A stretch of 41,528 nt of DNA from sequence record NC_019719.1; one strand, 5' to 3'. A program made the translations under genes and the position numbers. The notes beneath the pieces were generated by a model. The model did not search any database, had not been told where the DNA came from, and saw only the letters and a program-made list of their open reading frames with translations. Below, one piece after another: positions 26,822 to 37,882 of the stretch (positions within the stretch are counted from its first letter, which is position 1; each line of letters starts with the position of its first letter). The stretch comes from Escherichia phage HK633.

Positions 26822-27724
26822 TTAGTAGGTTATTTTTGTTGCGAATACTTCGCCTTTTACGATGGCTGTTATGATATTTTTAGCAACATCTTCTGATGCG
26901 CCAACCTTGATAAGGTCAGCAAGTATTTTGTTATTTACTTCTTTCCGGTGAGCTTTATCCTTTGCTCTACGCTCTTCTTCGTCCTTGATTCTTTTTTCTT
27001 CTGCTATTCTGGCTTGCTCTTTTGCTTCAGCCTCGCGACGGATTCGTTCAGCCTCCTCCTGTGCTTTTCTGCGTTCTGCTTCAATTGCTGCCTGCTTTTC
27101 TCTTTCAGCTCGTTCTGCTGCGGCCTTAGCTTCTGCTTCTCGCCTTGCTGCTGCTTCAATTTCGGCTTTTGCCTTTGCTTCGGCTTCTGCTCTGGCTTTC
27201 TCTTCAGCTTCTCTTTTTAATCGTTCTTCATGCTCTCGCTTTTCCTGCTCCGCTTTGAGTCTTGCCTCTTCTCTTTGGCGGTCAAATTCGCGATCCATCA
27301 AAATCGCTATTTCATGGTCAGACTCAATTTGCTTTGCGAGAGCTTCAGCTGCTGCCTTAGCTTCTTCTTCGGCTTTAATCCGCGCCTGTTCTTCCTCATA
27401 ATCAGTAAGAGGCTGGCGCGCCTTGGCTTTCAGTTCATCAAGGCGATCGCGCACTGTCTTGCGGTTGGCATCAATTAGCTTTGGAATTTCCTTCAGTTCA
27501 GCAACAAGGTCTTTGCCAAGACCATCGAGATATGTTTTCGTCTGCGCAACTTTATACGCCAGAGAAGCGATCTCCTTTCTGCCCTTTGCCGTTGTGATAT
27601 CAGGCACAAAGGACATAACTTCACGTTCAACCTTTTGAAGGATTTCTTCAATCTGGTCGGCAGACTGAAATACAGTCATTGCATTTGATTTTTCAATAAC
27701 AACTAAATCTGTTACTTCACTCAT
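26822..27724 (-). CDS. Hypothetical protein with N-terminal globular domain and E/A/K/R-rich low-complexity helical region
   Basis: 300 aa from ATG 27724 (GGAGGA RBS); roughly 150 aa of EAKR repeats (TolA-like composition); first gene after the leftward terminator. Confidence 0.6.
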   Translation of the reverse strand: MSEVTDLVVIEKSNAMTVFQSADQIEEILQKVEREVMSFVPDITTAKGRKEIASLAYKVAQTKTYLDGLGKDLVAELKEIPKLIDANRKTVRDRLDELKAKARQPLTDYEEEQARIKAEEEAKAAAEALAKQIESDHEIAILMDREFDRQREEARLKAEQEKREHEERLKREAEEKARAEAEAKAKAEIEAAARREAEAKAAAERAEREKQAAIEAERRKAQEEAERIRREAEAKEQARIAEEKRIKDEEERRAKDKAHRKEVNNKILADLIKVGASEDVAKNIITAIVKGEVFATKITY

Positions 27725-27736
27725 ATATCCTCCATC

Positions 27737-27763
27737 AAAAAAATTGCCCTCACACTGGAGGGC
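27737..27763 (-). terminator. Intrinsic terminator on minus strand (GCCCTC-CAGTGT-GAGGGC + AA + T7), tL-like
   Basis: Perfect 6-bp stem; U7 tail on the minus strand; between the PL-proximal genes and the recombination cassette. Confidence 0.65.
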
Positions 27764-27912
27764 AAAGAAGATTTCCAATAATCAGAACAAGTCGGCTCCT
27801 GTTTAGTTACGAGCGACATTGCTCCGTGTATTCACTCGTTGGAATGAATACAAAGTGCAGTGTTTATTCTGTTGTTTGTGCCAAAAATAAAGGCCGACTA
27901 TGCGTCCTGAAA

Positions 27913-28278
27913 TTACTTAACCAATGATGCTGCATATTCGATAAGGTAAAGTTTTGGAGCAAGCCAAATTTTCAGCCAGTCGAAATAATTGAAGAAAACA
28001 ACAATAGAAGTAATCGCTATTCCTGATGTGACAAGTAGTGATAAAAGAACAATATCTGCATCATCTCCTTTATTCCATGCAAAAATCATCAGATAAACAC
28101 ACGCTATAATCACCAATACACAGATAGCCTGAATTCCAGCTGATGATACGGCGTGCCACATCAAAAGCTGATGGATGACATCAGGAATCTGTGCCTGGCT
28201 AAATGAAACAGCCGCGTCTATTCCATTGCTGGCTTTTTGCAGTAGTTCTACGAGAATCTTGTTTGCTTGTTCTTCCAT
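27913..28278 (-). CDS. Small integral membrane protein (sieB-position; function unknown)
   Basis: 121 aa; AAGGTGA RBS; two to three hydrophobic helices; flanked by 13-bp direct repeats. Confidence 0.6.
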   Translation of the reverse strand: MEEQANKILVELLQKASNGIDAAVSFSQAQIPDVIHQLLMWHAVSSAGIQAICVLVIIACVYLMIFAWNKGDDADIVLLSLLVTSGIAITSIVVFFNYFDWLKIWLAPKLYLIEYAASLVK

Positions 28279-28588
28279 ATATCACCTTGATTGTAATAAG
28301 CATGAAATTATTTACGGCTAAAAAATAAAGGCCACCATCAGCAGCCTTGTTGTAAATGTTGCAGGTATCAAGTAAGTAATTAGATGGAGCGCCATAAATT
28401 ATGAATTCATCGTTTGTCGGATCCATCTCCATCTCTTGGCCTATTGCCATTCTTGCGTCAGTGTCATCAGCGGCGAAGCATAAAACAGCCCACGCTCCCA
28501 TTGTTTTAAAAAGAACTGCAATTGGCTGTGGTTTTACTGAATTTGCGTTAGCGCGAAAATCACAAATCGCACTTTCATGAAATTCCAT
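28199..28588 (-). CDS. Hypothetical protein
   Basis: 129 aa from ATG 28588 (GAGGT RBS), 8 nt after N stop; C-terminal 80 nt overlaps the membrane-protein gene in another frame. Confidence 0.45.
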   Translation of the reverse strand: MEFHESAICDFRANANSVKPQPIAVLFKTMGAWAVLCFAADDTDARMAIGQEMEMDPTNDEFIIYGAPSNYLLDTCNIYNKAADGGLYFLAVNNFMLITIKVIYGRTSKQDSRRTTAKSQQWNRRGCFI

Positions 28589-28596
28589 ATCTAACC

Positions 28597-28923
28597 TCAA
28601 ATAAGTGGTTTGCTGCCTAGTTTCATTTTCTGGCGACCAACACAAGTCACACCCATTTCACTGCGTGGCTTGCTGTACCATGTGCGCTGATTCTTGCGCT
28701 CAATACGTTGCAGGTTGCTTTCAATCTGTTCGTGGTATTCAGCCAGCACTGTAAGGTCTATCGGATTCAGTGCGCTTTCTACTCGTGATTTCGGTTTGCG
28801 ATTCAGCGAGAGAATAGGGCGGTTAACTGGTTTTGCGCTTACCCCAACTAACAGGGGATTTGCTGCTTTCCATTGAGCCTGTTTCTCTGCGCGACGTTCG
28901 CGGCGGCGTGTTTGTGCATCCAT
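28597..28923 (-). CDS. N: Antitermination protein N
   Basis: 108 aa; N-terminal arginine-rich motif MDAQTRRRERRAEKQAQWK and most of the sequence match lambda N as recalled. Confidence 0.9.
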   Translation of the reverse strand: MDAQTRRRERRAEKQAQWKAANPLLVGVSAKPVNRPILSLNRKPKSRVESALNPIDLTVLAEYHEQIESNLQRIERKNQRTWYSKPRSEMGVTCVGRQKMKLGSKPLI

Positions 28924-29191
28924 CTGGATTCTCCTGTCAGTTAGCTTTGGTGGTGTGGTGGCTGGTAGTCTAGCTCCAGCTTGTTGAGTCTCATTCGGAG
29001 GGGTATAACCGGCACCCCAGCGATTTTTCCATGCGACAACGTGCGCGTTATGGCGGCCTTATCGCCCGCGGCTCCCCATCTCGTCCACGCTATTGCTAGC
29101 GTTGGGAGCGCTTCACCGCTCAACAGTAGGTAAGCACTTGCCAGTGACTAGCTGGCTTCACCACACCCCAAAGCCTTCTGCTTTGAATGCT

Positions 29192-29222
29192 GCCCTTCTT
29201 CAGGGCTTAATTTTTAAGAGCC
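29192..29222 (-). promoter_or_regulatory. nutL (boxA GCTCTTA + boxB GCCCTGAAGAAGGGC)
   Basis: Minus strand reads GGCTCTTAAAAATTAAGCCCTGAAGAAGGGC, the lambda nutL sequence. Confidence 0.85.
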
Positions 29223-29266
29223 TCACCTTCATGGTGGTCAGTGCGTCCTGCTGATGGCTTAAAATT

Positions 29267-29334
29267 ACAAGAAAGATTGTATGTTGTAAACAAGAAATAT
29301 TGTAAAAAGGGGCGTGAAAAACAAACTCCATTGT
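29267..29334. promoter_or_regulatory. OL operator cluster (three 14-bp ACAA-N6-TTGT sites) with PL
   Basis: ACAAGAAAGATTGT 29267-29280, ACAAGAAATATTGT 29290-29303, ACAAACTCCATTGT 29321-29334; phage-434 operator architecture. Confidence 0.75.
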
Positions 29335-29383
29335 TTTTAAATGAACAATAGTTTGTTTTTGGTTATCGAGATTGAGGTGGGGA

Positions 29384-29784
29384 TTACTGGTTGCAGGTTC
29401 CGACTACATCACCAACAAATGATTTGGTTGATGTAAGTTGTTGCATACCTGGGATATTCATTACTTTGGAGTAAAGAGCTTTTTTGTCTGTAGTGATTGA
29501 CCAAGTTTCAACGGTTATTCCTCCTCCAGACTGGTATTCTCCTACCATAGTGTTCGATGACAAAGCAGTGTATTTCATCTCTGGATAGACGCCAGAAACT
29601 GATTCATAAACTGATGATTTATCGCCATTTATTGTTACGTGGAAAACGGAATCTTCCGTGCTGTCTTTTGTAAACTCGTAACGATCGCCATTCATTGACC
29701 CGTACCCGTGCAGGTTTGTGACAATCCAGCATTCAGAATTGGCGCTGGTAGTTAAGAGTATTGAGAGTAGCGCCGCAATCCTGA

Positions 29785-29788
<4 letters not shown>
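29384..29788 (-). CDS. Secreted protein of unknown function at the rex position, coupled to cI
   Basis: 134 aa from ATG 29788, which overlaps the cI stop (ATGA); signal peptide MIRIAALLSILLTTSANS; two Cys in the mature part; between cI and OL. Confidence 0.65.
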
Positions 29789-30736
<948 letters not shown>

Positions 30737-31181: not shown

Positions 31182-31343
31182 ATGACAAAACGTCGTAAGA
31201 AATACCAGGAAAAAGAAGAGATTCGACACCCTGATTCACCTGAGGGATTAGTGGTAGCCGCAGCAAATAACAGGGCGTTCGCAGAACGCCTTGTTGGTGT
31301 TTACAGACTAGCCAAAGCAGGAGTGAAACATGGGCGTCGTTAA
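31182..31343 (+). CDS. Small basic ORF at the position of the lambda O start
   Basis: 53 aa; GGAG RBS 5 nt upstream; begins at the conserved lambda-like AGGAGTnATTATGACAAA context. Confidence 0.3.
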   Translation: MTKRRKKYQEKEEIRHPDSPEGLVVAAANNRAFAERLVGVYRLAKAGVKHGRR

Positions 31344-32220
31344 GTTAGCTGATTACAGGCATAACCCTGTACAACATCAGGAGGCATCCAGTATGGGGTA
31401 TGTCTCTATACACCGCCAGTTTATGGACAGCAGGCTCTATAAGGACTCTCAGGCAGTACATCTTTGGCTTCACTTAATCCTCAAGGCTAATCACGAATCT
31501 ACTGTCGTCAATACGGATATCGGTCCGATAACTGTTGATCGCGGTCAGATGATAACTGGACGCCCGTCTCTGGTCAGAGAAACATTCATCCCCGACAACA
31601 AAGTTCGGAGCTTATTACGGACTTTTGAGTCGAAAGGGATGCTTAATATTTGCTCGATGGGGAAGAAATTTAGCCTGTTTACAATCGTTAAATATGACGA
31701 TTTTCAGGCAAAAAATTGTCCAACGGTTGTCCAACGGTTGTCCAACGCAAACACCAGTAATGGCGCGGCTCTCAGCGGAGATTGTCCAACTGCTGTCCAA
31801 CGGTTGTCCATAAACAATAATATAAATAATATCTCTAATACTGACGTATTAGAGAGTGCAACAGCAGACAAAAAGTCTGACAAGAAAAAACCTTCCGTTA
31901 GCTGTCAGGATGTTGTCGATGCTTACCACGAAATCCTTCCTGAAGCGCCAAGAATCCGCGCACTGAATGACAAGCGTAAAAACCAGATCCGAACGTTCTG
32001 GCGCAAAGCCGGAGTGATAACCCGCCAGCTTGACGGGCATGGGTTCACGATGCAGGACTGGAGAAATTATTTGAGCTACGTAGGCGAAAATTGCCGATGG
32101 ATGTTCGAAGAACGCCCAAACCATCAACGCGGAACCGTCTGGCACAAAAAGGGATTTGATTTCCTGCTTAACGACAATACCTACCTGAAAGTTCGTGAGG
32201 GTGAACACGATGACCGATAA
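31330..32220 (+). CDS. Replication initiator (O-like, iteron-binding)
   Basis: 296 aa; contains the origin iterons within the coding sequence; directly upstream of the helicase gene. Confidence 0.75.
   Translation: MGVVKLADYRHNPVQHQEASSMGYVSIHRQFMDSRLYKDSQAVHLWLHLILKANHESTVVNTDIGPITVDRGQMITGRPSLVRETFIPDNKVRSLLRTFESKGMLNICSMGKKFSLFTIVKYDDFQAKNCPTVVQRLSNANTSNGAALSGDCPTAVQRLSINNNINNISNTDVLESATADKKSDKKKPSVSCQDVVDAYHEILPEAPRIRALNDKRKNQIRTFWRKAGVITRQLDGHGFTMQDWRNYLSYVGENCRWMFEERPNHQRGTVWHKKGFDFLLNDNTYLKVREGEHDDR
31716..31845. repeat. Replication origin: TTGTCCAACGG iterons plus AT-rich region
   Basis: At least five copies of (T)TGTCCAAC between 31716 and 31811, followed by AACAATAATATAAATAATATCTCTAATA. 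Confidence 0.75.
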
Positions 32221-33935: not shown

Positions 33936-34346
33936 ATGAAGCAAACAATCTTCCTCCGAAGTAAGCAACAACAGCAAGCCGCAATCAACGCCATCCTCGA
34001 AACTCCTCTCGATAAAGACAAGCCAGTCACCATCCGCATTACTGACTACAAGCGCAACCTTGACCAGAACGCAAAATTTCACGCGATGCTGGCGGATATC
34101 GCTTGTCAGGTTCAATGGTGCGGCAAATGGTTAAAACCAGAGCAATGGAAGGTTTTGTTGATCAGCGGTCATGCAGTGGCAACAAAGCAGGAAGCTGATG
34201 TTTTGCCCGGGCTTGAAGGCGAATACGTCAACATTCGCGAAAGCAGCGCGCAGATGAGTGTGAAGCGTATGGCAAGTCTGATCGAGTACACAACAGCCTG
34301 GGCTATTGGTCAGGGTGTCAGATTTACCGACAGGAGGTATGAATGA
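33936..34346 (+). CDS. ninB: NinB recombination protein
   Basis: 136 aa; GAGG RBS; resembles lambda NinB. Confidence 0.8.
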
Positions 34347-36996: not shown

Positions 36997-37882
36997 CATT
37001 TCTGCAATCCGGTCAGGACTTTCGAGTTAATGCGTGCTGCACGACACGTTGACACTCATACGCGAGAGCCCTGAGCCAGATTGAAGGCTATCAGGTAAGA
37101 GCATATCGACGCACTGATAGGGCTGGATTGGAAGATCATTCAGAGACCCGGCAGACAGATGTGTTCTTTCCGATGGTTTTCGTAAGCGACTTTGCGGTTT
37201 TTTAGAAACTGATCACAAAGATAAATGCAAACGAAGAAATGTATCTGGCCGTAGCTTAACCGCTAAACACCAGTGAGGTATTCCAGTTCCTCATCAACGA
37301 ATCTGGCGCACTGGCCCGGTGTGATTAATAATGGGCACACAACAGGTAAGAGCATTAAAGAACTGGCAAAGAGCTTAACGGTCTGCGAAAGCATTTCTTA
37401 GTGGCACAACTGGCCGGTACAACTGAGTGCTCTTTCCGGTGTGGTGAATGCGCAGGCTGATGCGCGCAGGAGAGCTTCGGAAGAACAAGGTGCCTGTATA
37501 CAAGCCGGAGATCAGCGCCGGCCACCACAGCCAAATCCACCCAGAGCAAAACCGTTGTTCATCCTTACCATTCCCTCAGTATTTTGGGCTACAACCCTCA
37601 GCCCATTTTTTAAAGCGTACTTCCACCAAGAACCAGACCTAACCAACTCATTGCTGACACTCTGTGGATACGGTTGTCTAGTGCGCTTTAAAAAAGAAAA
37701 CCCAGCATCAATGGCTGGGCTTCGTGATATGAGCGGCATGTATTGTTGGCGCAATCCACGCCTGATTTGCTCATGAATGCGGTCACGAACAAACCCGTTA
37801 CAAATCAACCGTAACCCGGATTTGTTCAAGCGACCATATCCATAATTCCTAATTTGAACAGATCCCCTTCTGGGGGTAAGAC

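Follow-up and report, generated by a model that had tools for sequence, protein, structure and literature searches.

Escherichia phage HK633 (sequence record NC_019719.1) carries a small membrane-protein gene that is bracketed by two identical 13-bp direct repeats. The window considered here is the whole stretch of 41,528 nucleotides, and the region around this gene is the early left (PL) operon of a P22-like, lambdoid phage, the closest relatives across this half of the window being HK620, HK542 and Sf6. On the (-) strand, the features succeed one another in the order nutL, N, a homolog of H0090 of VT2-Sakai, a terminator-like hairpin here called T_up, the membrane-protein gene, a second terminator-like hairpin called T_cas, a conserved spacer of about 118 nucleotides, the tL2a hairpin and a gene for a coiled-coil protein. 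The spacer is the stretch between tL2a and the nearer copy of the repeat, referred to as copy 1.

The membrane-protein gene (27913-28278, (-)) encodes a two-transmembrane (TM) protein of 121 residues that belongs to phrog_3054, with conserved termini and a hypervariable core. Its 5' leader (28279-28320, (-)), which contains a Shine-Dalgarno sequence AAGGTG at 28283-28288, is common to the Sf6, CUS-3, Gally and N7 alleles. Upstream of the leader, T_up occupies 28321-28348 (-) and consists of a stem-loop (28328-28348) and a T-tract; copy 2 of the repeat (28321-28333, (-)) forms its 3' arm and T-tract. Downstream of the gene, T_cas (27883-27908, (-); AGGaCGCATAGTCGGCCTTTATTTTT) is degenerate in the window, base 27905 breaking its 6-bp stem. 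Copy 1 (27883-27895, (-); GGCCTTTATTTTT when read along the transcribed strand) provides T_cas with its 3' arm and T-tract and is at the same time the 5' edge of a conserved block that holds a homolog of the PreS small RNA.

On the (+) strand, the 13-mer reads AAAAATAAAGGCC and has exact copies at 27883-27895 and 28321-28333, with no third site in the 41.5-kb window when one mismatch is allowed. The whole-window repeat scan found both copies where a first-pass annotation of this DNA had placed them, on either side of the 121-residue gene, whose open reading frame (ORF) is intact on the (-) strand. That annotation had also held an exact 13-mer repeated within 450 bp to be unlikely by chance. 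This is correct for this particular 13-mer, for which 0.06 second copies are expected in the window, but not for 13-mers in general: in 30% of dinucleotide shuffles of the whole window, at least one exact 13-mer recurs in direct orientation no more than 500 bp away (0.51 cases per shuffle on average), and three loci of this kind are present in the real window. Another pair of exact 13-bp direct repeats, CAGGTAAGAGCAT, lies at 37092-37104 and 37343-37355, 251 bp apart. A longer repeat was considered and rejected, the identity between the two copies not being significant past 13 bp when 24 nucleotides on each side were compared with shuffles in the window, CUS-3 and Gally (p = 0.19-0.99). An ATAGT beside the 13-mer, common to the lambda-type T_up and to T_cas, was judged too short to count. 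Just inside both 13-mers lie two 12-mers, TGAAATTACTTA (27908-27919) and a TGAATTATTTA-type sequence (28303-28314), which are identical at 11 of 12 positions and kept in other alleles. This 12-nucleotide repeat (TGAAATTAYTTA) was tried as a second duplication and dropped, its order not being collinear with the 13-mer repeat and its significance doubtful; it is possibly due to chance. The repeat on its own is weak statistical evidence, and it is the comparison of genomes that lifts it above chance.

In HK106, mEp234 and VT2-Sakai, alignment with the window reveals near-identical, collinear flanks with one copy of the 13-mer as their junction and no membrane gene between them. In lambda, the site between ea10 and ral is likewise empty, the single 13-mer lying at 34070-34082 of NC_001416. 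Relative to these four genomes, the window holds exactly 438 extra bases, that is one repeat unit plus 425 bp. In parallel, IMG/VR was scanned with the left flank and the 13-mer, which gave at least 120 loci, 113 of them with enough sequence to be classified; among these matches listed, which are also the scope of the other IMG/VR results below, 73 were empty and 40 filled. The first-pass annotation had proposed to look in related phages for an empty site marked by one repeat copy, and such sites are present in lambda, HK106, mEp234, VT2-Sakai and 73 of the 113 IMG/VR loci. The opposite outcome, repeats standing in related genomes without any insertion polymorphism, was not observed, since the alignments display a polymorphism whose boundary falls exactly on the repeat. 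The membrane gene is an optional module with its presence/absence edge exactly on the repeat. HK620, the closest overall relative of the window, is uninformative for this site, as its arrangement here differs and the sieB-like hkaP is present. Among complete E. coli genomes (n = 5,426), parts of the region were matched in 2,241 and the whole arrangement of H0090, T_up, membrane gene and T_cas in 18 only. Variants of the 13-mer gave no signal as to whether the gene was gained or lost, such variants occurring in both empty and filled genomes.

The position of the 13-mer becomes clearer on the transcribed strand, where GGCCTTTATTTTT is the descending stem arm and the T-tract of two different terminator-like hairpins. 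In T_up, AAGGCTGC(C)TGATGGTGGCCTT, copy 2 accounts for the final six bases of the stem and for the T-tract. This hairpin (28321-28348) has nine pairs, a TATTTTTT tail and a computed energy of -10.3 kcal/mol in the window versus -13.9 kcal/mol in HK106. It has the form of an intrinsic terminator, namely a G+C-rich stem-loop followed by a T/U run, and its homolog was marked as a rho-independent terminator by the annotators of mEp234. In relatives, T_up encodes in addition the last codons and the stop (NKAA-TGA) of the upstream gene, and this end is common to ral and the unrelated H0090. Out of 91 sampled T_up sequences, about 40% fold at about -14 kcal/mol and about half, of the lambda type, hardly fold. 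Copy 1 supplies the T_cas hairpin AGGCCGCATAGTCGGCCT with its 3' arm and T-tract; the 6-bp stem of this hairpin is intact in CUS-3, Gally and about 31 of 45 sampled relatives. T_cas does not fold in the window and in the SPN9CC-type allele because one stem base (27905) is changed; in the window, the stem mismatch leaves three base pairs only, and the terminator form is lost. T_up closes the upstream gene, either ral or the 83-residue H0090 ORF, and T_cas opens the conserved block of PreS (also called LPR1) and tL2a.

The slot between the two copies (window 27896-28320) is not reserved for the membrane gene and takes at least five states in IMG/VR. Alternative cargo was found in relatives (loci L010, L022, L051, L088, L115 and others) in the form of a 207-residue Nmad5 protein (PF18757, E = 1.3e-70), a 107-residue phrog_1372 protein and a 60-residue phrog_37822 protein, all of which end at the T_cas hairpin. 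T_cas and copy 1 constitute the 3' end of each of these genes, with the TAG stop inside the hairpin for Nmad5 (..EAA-TAG) and for phrog_1372 (..DKAE/DKAA-TAG). In the membrane-gene module, T_cas begins about 4 nucleotides after the stop codon, which lies 17 nucleotides from the 13-mer, and the junction of this module with the constant block is the 5' edge of the T_cas hairpin. The spacing between copy 1 and copy 2 varies with the cargo, being 438, 494-496, 521 or 658 bp. Copy 2 was accompanied by an upstream ral or H0090 in every classified locus in which the upstream gene was identified; in four loci with copy 2 at a spacing of 521, neither was detected within the 1300 nucleotides examined. 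As is expected of a boundary junction, the 13-mer with T_up thus follows ral or H0090, and the 13-mer with T_cas follows four unrelated genes.

The membrane gene was also found with copy 1 alone, in SPN9CC and in loci L066, L069, L075 and L078. In Salmonella P22-like phages (SPN9CC) it stands beside sieB, and in L066 and L078 the phrog_3054 gene comes directly after N with a AGGTGATATATG start context as in H0090; there is no copy 2 in either setting. A 98.9% match between the window and Salmonella phages spans 27739-28288 and stops in the Shine-Dalgarno region (about 28288, the end of the SPN9CC homology), not at the 13-mer, and the latest exchange in the lineage of the window therefore used another boundary than the 13-mer. 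The placement of phrog_3054 directly after N at the same junction in L066 and L078 suggests a putative second recombination boundary at the Shine-Dalgarno sequence and ATG. In the window, the start contexts of the membrane gene (28273-28287) and of the H0090-like ORF (28583-28597) are alike, AGGTGATATATGGAA versus AGGTTAGATATGGAA.

The upstream gene, a homolog of VT2-Sakai H0090 (phrog_2471; 28199-28588, (-)), normally encodes 83 residues and ends at about 28338. Here, it runs from its ATG at 28588 down to 28199 and overlaps the membrane gene by 80 nucleotides, as the first-pass annotation had noted. The further idea that the overlap reflects a junction disturbed by insertion does not stand, for relatives with the same insertion keep an intact upstream ORF of 252 nucleotides and 83 residues (WP_000394299 or the close variant WP_000394305), 59 nucleotides away from the membrane gene. 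This intact ORF was seen at the sequence level in L130, L131 and L026 and by annotation in L132 and L133. The relatives whose sequence was examined read CAGGCAGCC where the window reads CAGCAGCC, with one G missing at 28341/28342, a 1-nucleotide deletion specific to the window; the TGA is consequently out of frame and the ORF is extended to 129 residues, into the membrane gene. The missing G also shortens the loop of T_up. The overlap would thus be either a one-base frameshift private to the window or a sequencing error.

The 121-residue protein matches phrog_3054 over its full length (E = 9.3e-47, residues 1-121 to profile positions 1-137), a family labelled 'unknown function' in PHROGs. No match was obtained in Pfam or NCBIfam, and none that was significant in PADLOC. 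A search of 1.84 billion cluster representatives (50%-identity clusters) with the phrog_3054 profile returned 4,652 members at E <= 1e-3; the best 150 of these 4,652 are all stand-alone proteins of 103-185 residues, with no informative fusions. Homologs are present in temperate enterobacterial phages as well as in virulent phages, including phi92-like myoviruses, N4-like podoviruses of the genus Ithacavirus and many Vibrio phages, and in virulent phages their neighbours are early, replication or recombination genes. Across the alignment, the first 45 and the last 23 residues are nearly invariant, and the two hydrophobic helices (about 46-68 and 76-98) and their connecting loop of 7-38 residues are hypervariable. 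AlphaFold gives three helices (2-70, 74-97 and 100-120) with a mean predicted local distance difference test (pLDDT) score of 77. Foldseek found generic helical hairpins only in the PDB (E >= 0.75) and uncharacterised family members only in BFVD. We infer a two-TM hairpin anchor of the inner membrane that would present the conserved N- and C-terminal helices. These helices would be the functional surfaces, with the TM segments as a freely varying anchor.

Expression of the membrane gene is likely to depend on its position in the operon. A lambda-type nutL is located at 29192-29221 (-), with GCTCTTAA at the boxA position, one base short of the lambda consensus, and GCCCTGAAGAAGGGC as boxB. It is followed by a gene for a lambda-type antiterminator N (28597-28923, (-); Pfam N36, 98.9% DNA identity to lambda). 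During transcription from PL, N acting at this nutL would enable RNA polymerase to read past T_up, T_cas and tL2a. No sigma-70-like promoter was detected on the (-) strand between 28279 and 28420, either by a consensus scan or by eye. With read-through from PL and N and no promoter-like site of its own, the membrane protein would therefore be an early lytic product and not one expressed from the prophage, and the gene is probably silent in the lysogen.

The whole of these observations is best understood, with a probability of about three in four, as lambdoid mosaicism in which the 13-mer is the hairpin arm closing small gene modules of the PL operon, the polymorphism stems from recombination at short identity and the modules are expressed through PL and N. 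Two modules stand in tandem in the window, the H0090-like ORF with T_up and the phrog_3054 gene followed by T_cas, and for this reason the hairpin arm occurs twice, 438 bp apart. Recombination across the 13-bp identity would produce the polymorphism, through a precise deletion between the copies or through the reverse event during exchange between co-infecting phages or prophages. From there, the long conserved flanks, with the PreS block to one side and ral, H0090 and N to the other, would allow the resulting arrangements to spread through ordinary homologous recombination. The first-pass annotation had seen a gene acquired as a cassette; what remains of this view is an optional module with its edge on the repeat, whereas the idea that its insertion gave rise to the repeats is not supported. 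The 13-mer is the arm of two pre-existing hairpins, copy 1 ends unrelated genes and the gene is found elsewhere with one copy. The phenomenon is a known one, the shuffling of lambdoid modules at conserved gene boundaries, and not the movement of a mobile cassette.

Several points weigh against this interpretation of the locus. The lambda-type T_up, which makes up about half of the sampled sequences, and the T_cas of the window are predicted to form no stable hairpin, so that the word terminator designates here a predicted form, and the fold z-scores are modest (-1.3 to -2.2). The 13-bp identity of two otherwise dissimilar hairpins could be the trace of a founding event. The proportions of empty and filled loci were obtained in IMG/VR with a selection pattern that contained the 13-mer, and they are proportions among the matches listed and not population frequencies. 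The absence of a promoter of its own comes from a consensus scan. Finally, the topology prediction called for by the first-pass annotation did recover two hydrophobic helices, but the orientation given by the positive-inside rule is contradictory between alleles: short loops are acidic, long loops are basic next to the first TM segment, and the topology calls conflict.

Other explanations have been considered for the repeat. That it is a chance match of two A+T-rich sequences, unconnected with the presence of the gene, could be argued from the 30% of shuffled windows that hold some exact 13-mer direct repeat within 500 bp and from the lack of significant similarity beyond 13 bp. Nevertheless, the edge of the indel coincides with the repeat, to the exact base, in four independent phage genomes and both copies are kept at the same positions in N7, Sf6, CUS-3 and Gally, so that the alignments refute this explanation, which we find barely credible. 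We do not think either that a transposition-like or site-specific insertion with target duplication took place, such as that of a transposon-like or homing element into the T-tract of a terminator. It would account for empty sites with one copy, for filled sites with exactly one extra repeat unit and for the lower G+C content of the insert (0.38 versus 0.50 for the window), but a low G+C content (0.42) is also seen in the H0090 and PreS segments next to it. A repeat search and inspection found no terminal inverted repeats or mobile-element signature at the insert ends (27896.. and ..28320), and the 425 bp hold no recombinase, transposase, integrase or homing endonuclease, their only substantial ORF being that of the 121-residue protein, which has no Pfam or NCBIfam match. 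Moreover, three unrelated genes also have copy 1 and its hairpin as their 3' end, and where the membrane gene stands next to sieB or immediately follows N, only one copy accompanies it. Target-site duplication is highly improbable and already largely refuted. Slightly less remote, and still very unlikely, is a dedicated recombination joint in which the hairpin and GGCCTTTATTTTT would function like an integron attC site and a phage recombinase would swap cassettes upstream of PreS. A hairpin with one and the same 3' arm comes directly after at least five unrelated genes (ral, H0090, Nmad5, phrog_1372 and phrog_37822) and, with a 17-nucleotide spacer in between, after the phrog_3054 gene; the 5' arms differ between T_up and T_cas, and the slot has at least five states. 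However, in integron cassette arrays the dedicated recombinase gene is adjacent, whereas none is tied to this slot, and from N to the coiled-coil gene no recombinase is encoded; the lineage of the window has its most recent junctions away from the 13-mer, at the Shine-Dalgarno region (about 28288), long flanking homology is sufficient to move modules, and the hairpin is degenerate in many genomes.

As to the gene itself, the first-pass annotation had drawn attention to its position, where sieB-type abortive-infection genes lie. The gene is indeed in the interval between N and the recombination genes, but the likeness is positional only, with no similarity to SieB and on the opposite strand. 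A sieB-type function in abortive infection or superinfection exclusion, as suggested by this position, is unlikely, although it deserves more consideration than the alternatives raised for the repeat. It would suit a small inner-membrane protein encoded in the interval that holds sieB in lambda and P22-like phages, from N to the recombination genes, and an arms race could lie behind the variability of the TM and loop region; weak PADLOC matches to '2TM effector' models were also obtained, at E values of 0.06-0.09 that are far below significance. Against it, BLASTP with lambda SieB gave no alignment at E <= 100, sieB lies on the (+) strand in lambda and SPN9CC and the membrane gene on the PL strand, and the proteins differ in size (121 versus 184 residues). 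The membrane gene and sieB are found side by side in SPN9CC, the absence of a promoter-like site makes the gene probably silent in a lysogen, and virulent phages often carry homologs amid their early, replication and recombination genes. A membrane-level early function, for instance superinfection exclusion or the modulation of a host membrane protein, is our tentative best guess.

In the lambdoid mosaic model, homologous recombination takes place at short conserved sequences between genes (summarised in PMC3233612). The slot resembles the boundary sequences annotated in Sf6 and CUS-3 (bsq4 and bsq5) in that unrelated genes alternate in it with junctions at gene ends, and one of its sides is the very block that Sf6 annotates as bsq4. 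It differs from them in that the joint is here narrowed to a 13-bp half-hairpin and the boundary block is explained by the PreS small RNA. DNA between short direct repeats can be deleted through slipped mispairing or short-homology recombination. The likeness with such deletions is that taking one repeat and the DNA between the copies out of the filled allele yields the empty one, and the difference is that the event here could be a gain or a loss and is known from sequence comparison alone. As Juhala et al. are said to have described in 2000, morons are extra genes found in part of the lambdoid genomes; in the classical case, each has a promoter and a terminator of its own and an atypical composition. 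The membrane gene is similar to a moron in being present in some genomes and precisely absent between the adjacent genes of close relatives, in the terminator-like hairpin that follows it and perhaps in its lower G+C content (0.38 versus 0.50 for the window, with 0.42 for the H0090 and PreS neighbours). In contrast to a moron, no promoter of its own was found by consensus scan, the hairpin belongs to the resident downstream block and expression is probably lytic rather than from the prophage.

On its downstream side, the slot is bordered by a small RNA. In lambda, PreS (or LPR1) is an Hfq-bound small RNA of about 88 nucleotides, processed to about 68 nucleotides, that is located between ral and ea10 with its 3' end at tL2a; it is made in the lytic cycle only and raises the translation of host dnaN (bioRxiv 10.1101/2024.10.31.621285). 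Window 27725-27901 is 94.9% identical to the lambda ral-ea10 interval over 178 nucleotides, and a PreS homolog was therefore placed at about 27737-27824 (-), its 5' end being set only from the published length of about 88 nucleotides. It ends in the tL2a hairpin (27744-27765), which has an energy of -13.2 kcal/mol and a T7 tail and is annotated as tL2A in Sf6. An Rfam scan of 27500-29400 found no family, PreS and nutL being absent from the library. The block just downstream of copy 1 is thus homologous to the lambda PreS locus and ends at tL2a as it does there; PreS is not part of the insert but a conserved neighbour that fixes one side of the slot. The conservation of the block that Sf6 calls 'boundary sequence bsq4' is explained by the presence of PreS within it. 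Since the slot is about 58 nucleotides upstream of PreS, the small RNA comes to stand behind different upstream genes and hairpins in different phages. A perfect 8-bp, A+T-rich hairpin (TGTATTCA ... TGAATACA, 10-nucleotide loop) was noticed at 27816-27863, at or just upstream of the estimated 5' end of PreS, and may be part of a PreS precursor or a processing signal. Beyond tL2a, the next gene of the PL operon (26822-27724, (-)) encodes a coiled-coil, 'TolA-like' homolog of Sf6 gp33 (phrog_1376), with its real start at the ATG at 27724.

A few other features of the window and its relatives were recorded. In Citrobacter phage vB_CfrS_K1M (L136, 1962-2866), a 71%-identical homolog of the membrane protein is encoded right after an annotated DNA polymerase III beta-subunit, the sliding clamp; with regard to PreS, which raises host dnaN and lies beside the gene in lambdoid phages, this is probably a coincidence. 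At 29384-29860 (-), a 158-residue ORF of phrog_2651, a family whose function label is unknown, begins with a signal-peptide or lipoprotein-like start (MIRIAALLSILLTTSANSEC). Its location, with PL/nutL on one side and the repressor gene on the other, is that of rexAB in lambda, and the ORF is a candidate accessory gene for expression from the prophage. Furthermore, two clusters of three 11-bp iterons (TTGTCCAACGG) are found at 31704-31821, inside an O-like replication gene (31330-32220), and presumably constitute the replication origin.

The genomic event at this locus is a textbook example and not a discovery, and what is new is modest: a joint defined to the base as half of a hairpin, a list of alternative cargo, the location of the slot beside PreS, and how large the cargo family is and which of its parts are conserved. 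With a boundary placed to the base on 13 bp of identity, the locus offers a substrate for asking how short a homology is used in phage mosaicism. In addition, the varied genes and hairpins upstream of PreS could affect its production from the PL transcript. The cargo family is very large and spread over temperate and virulent phages without a Pfam model, and its combination of invariant termini with a hypervariable membrane core is unusual. It is even conceivable, as a long shot, that the hairpin ending in GGCCTTTATTTTT is a selected and reusable joint, that the site upstream of PreS is a hotspot of cassette exchange, recognisable by its sequence, for small accessory genes of lambdoid and P22-like phages and that its cargo forms a pool of early host-takeover or exclusion functions; if this were true, the phrog_3054 protein, Nmad5, phrog_1372 and phrog_37822 would be the cargo known so far.

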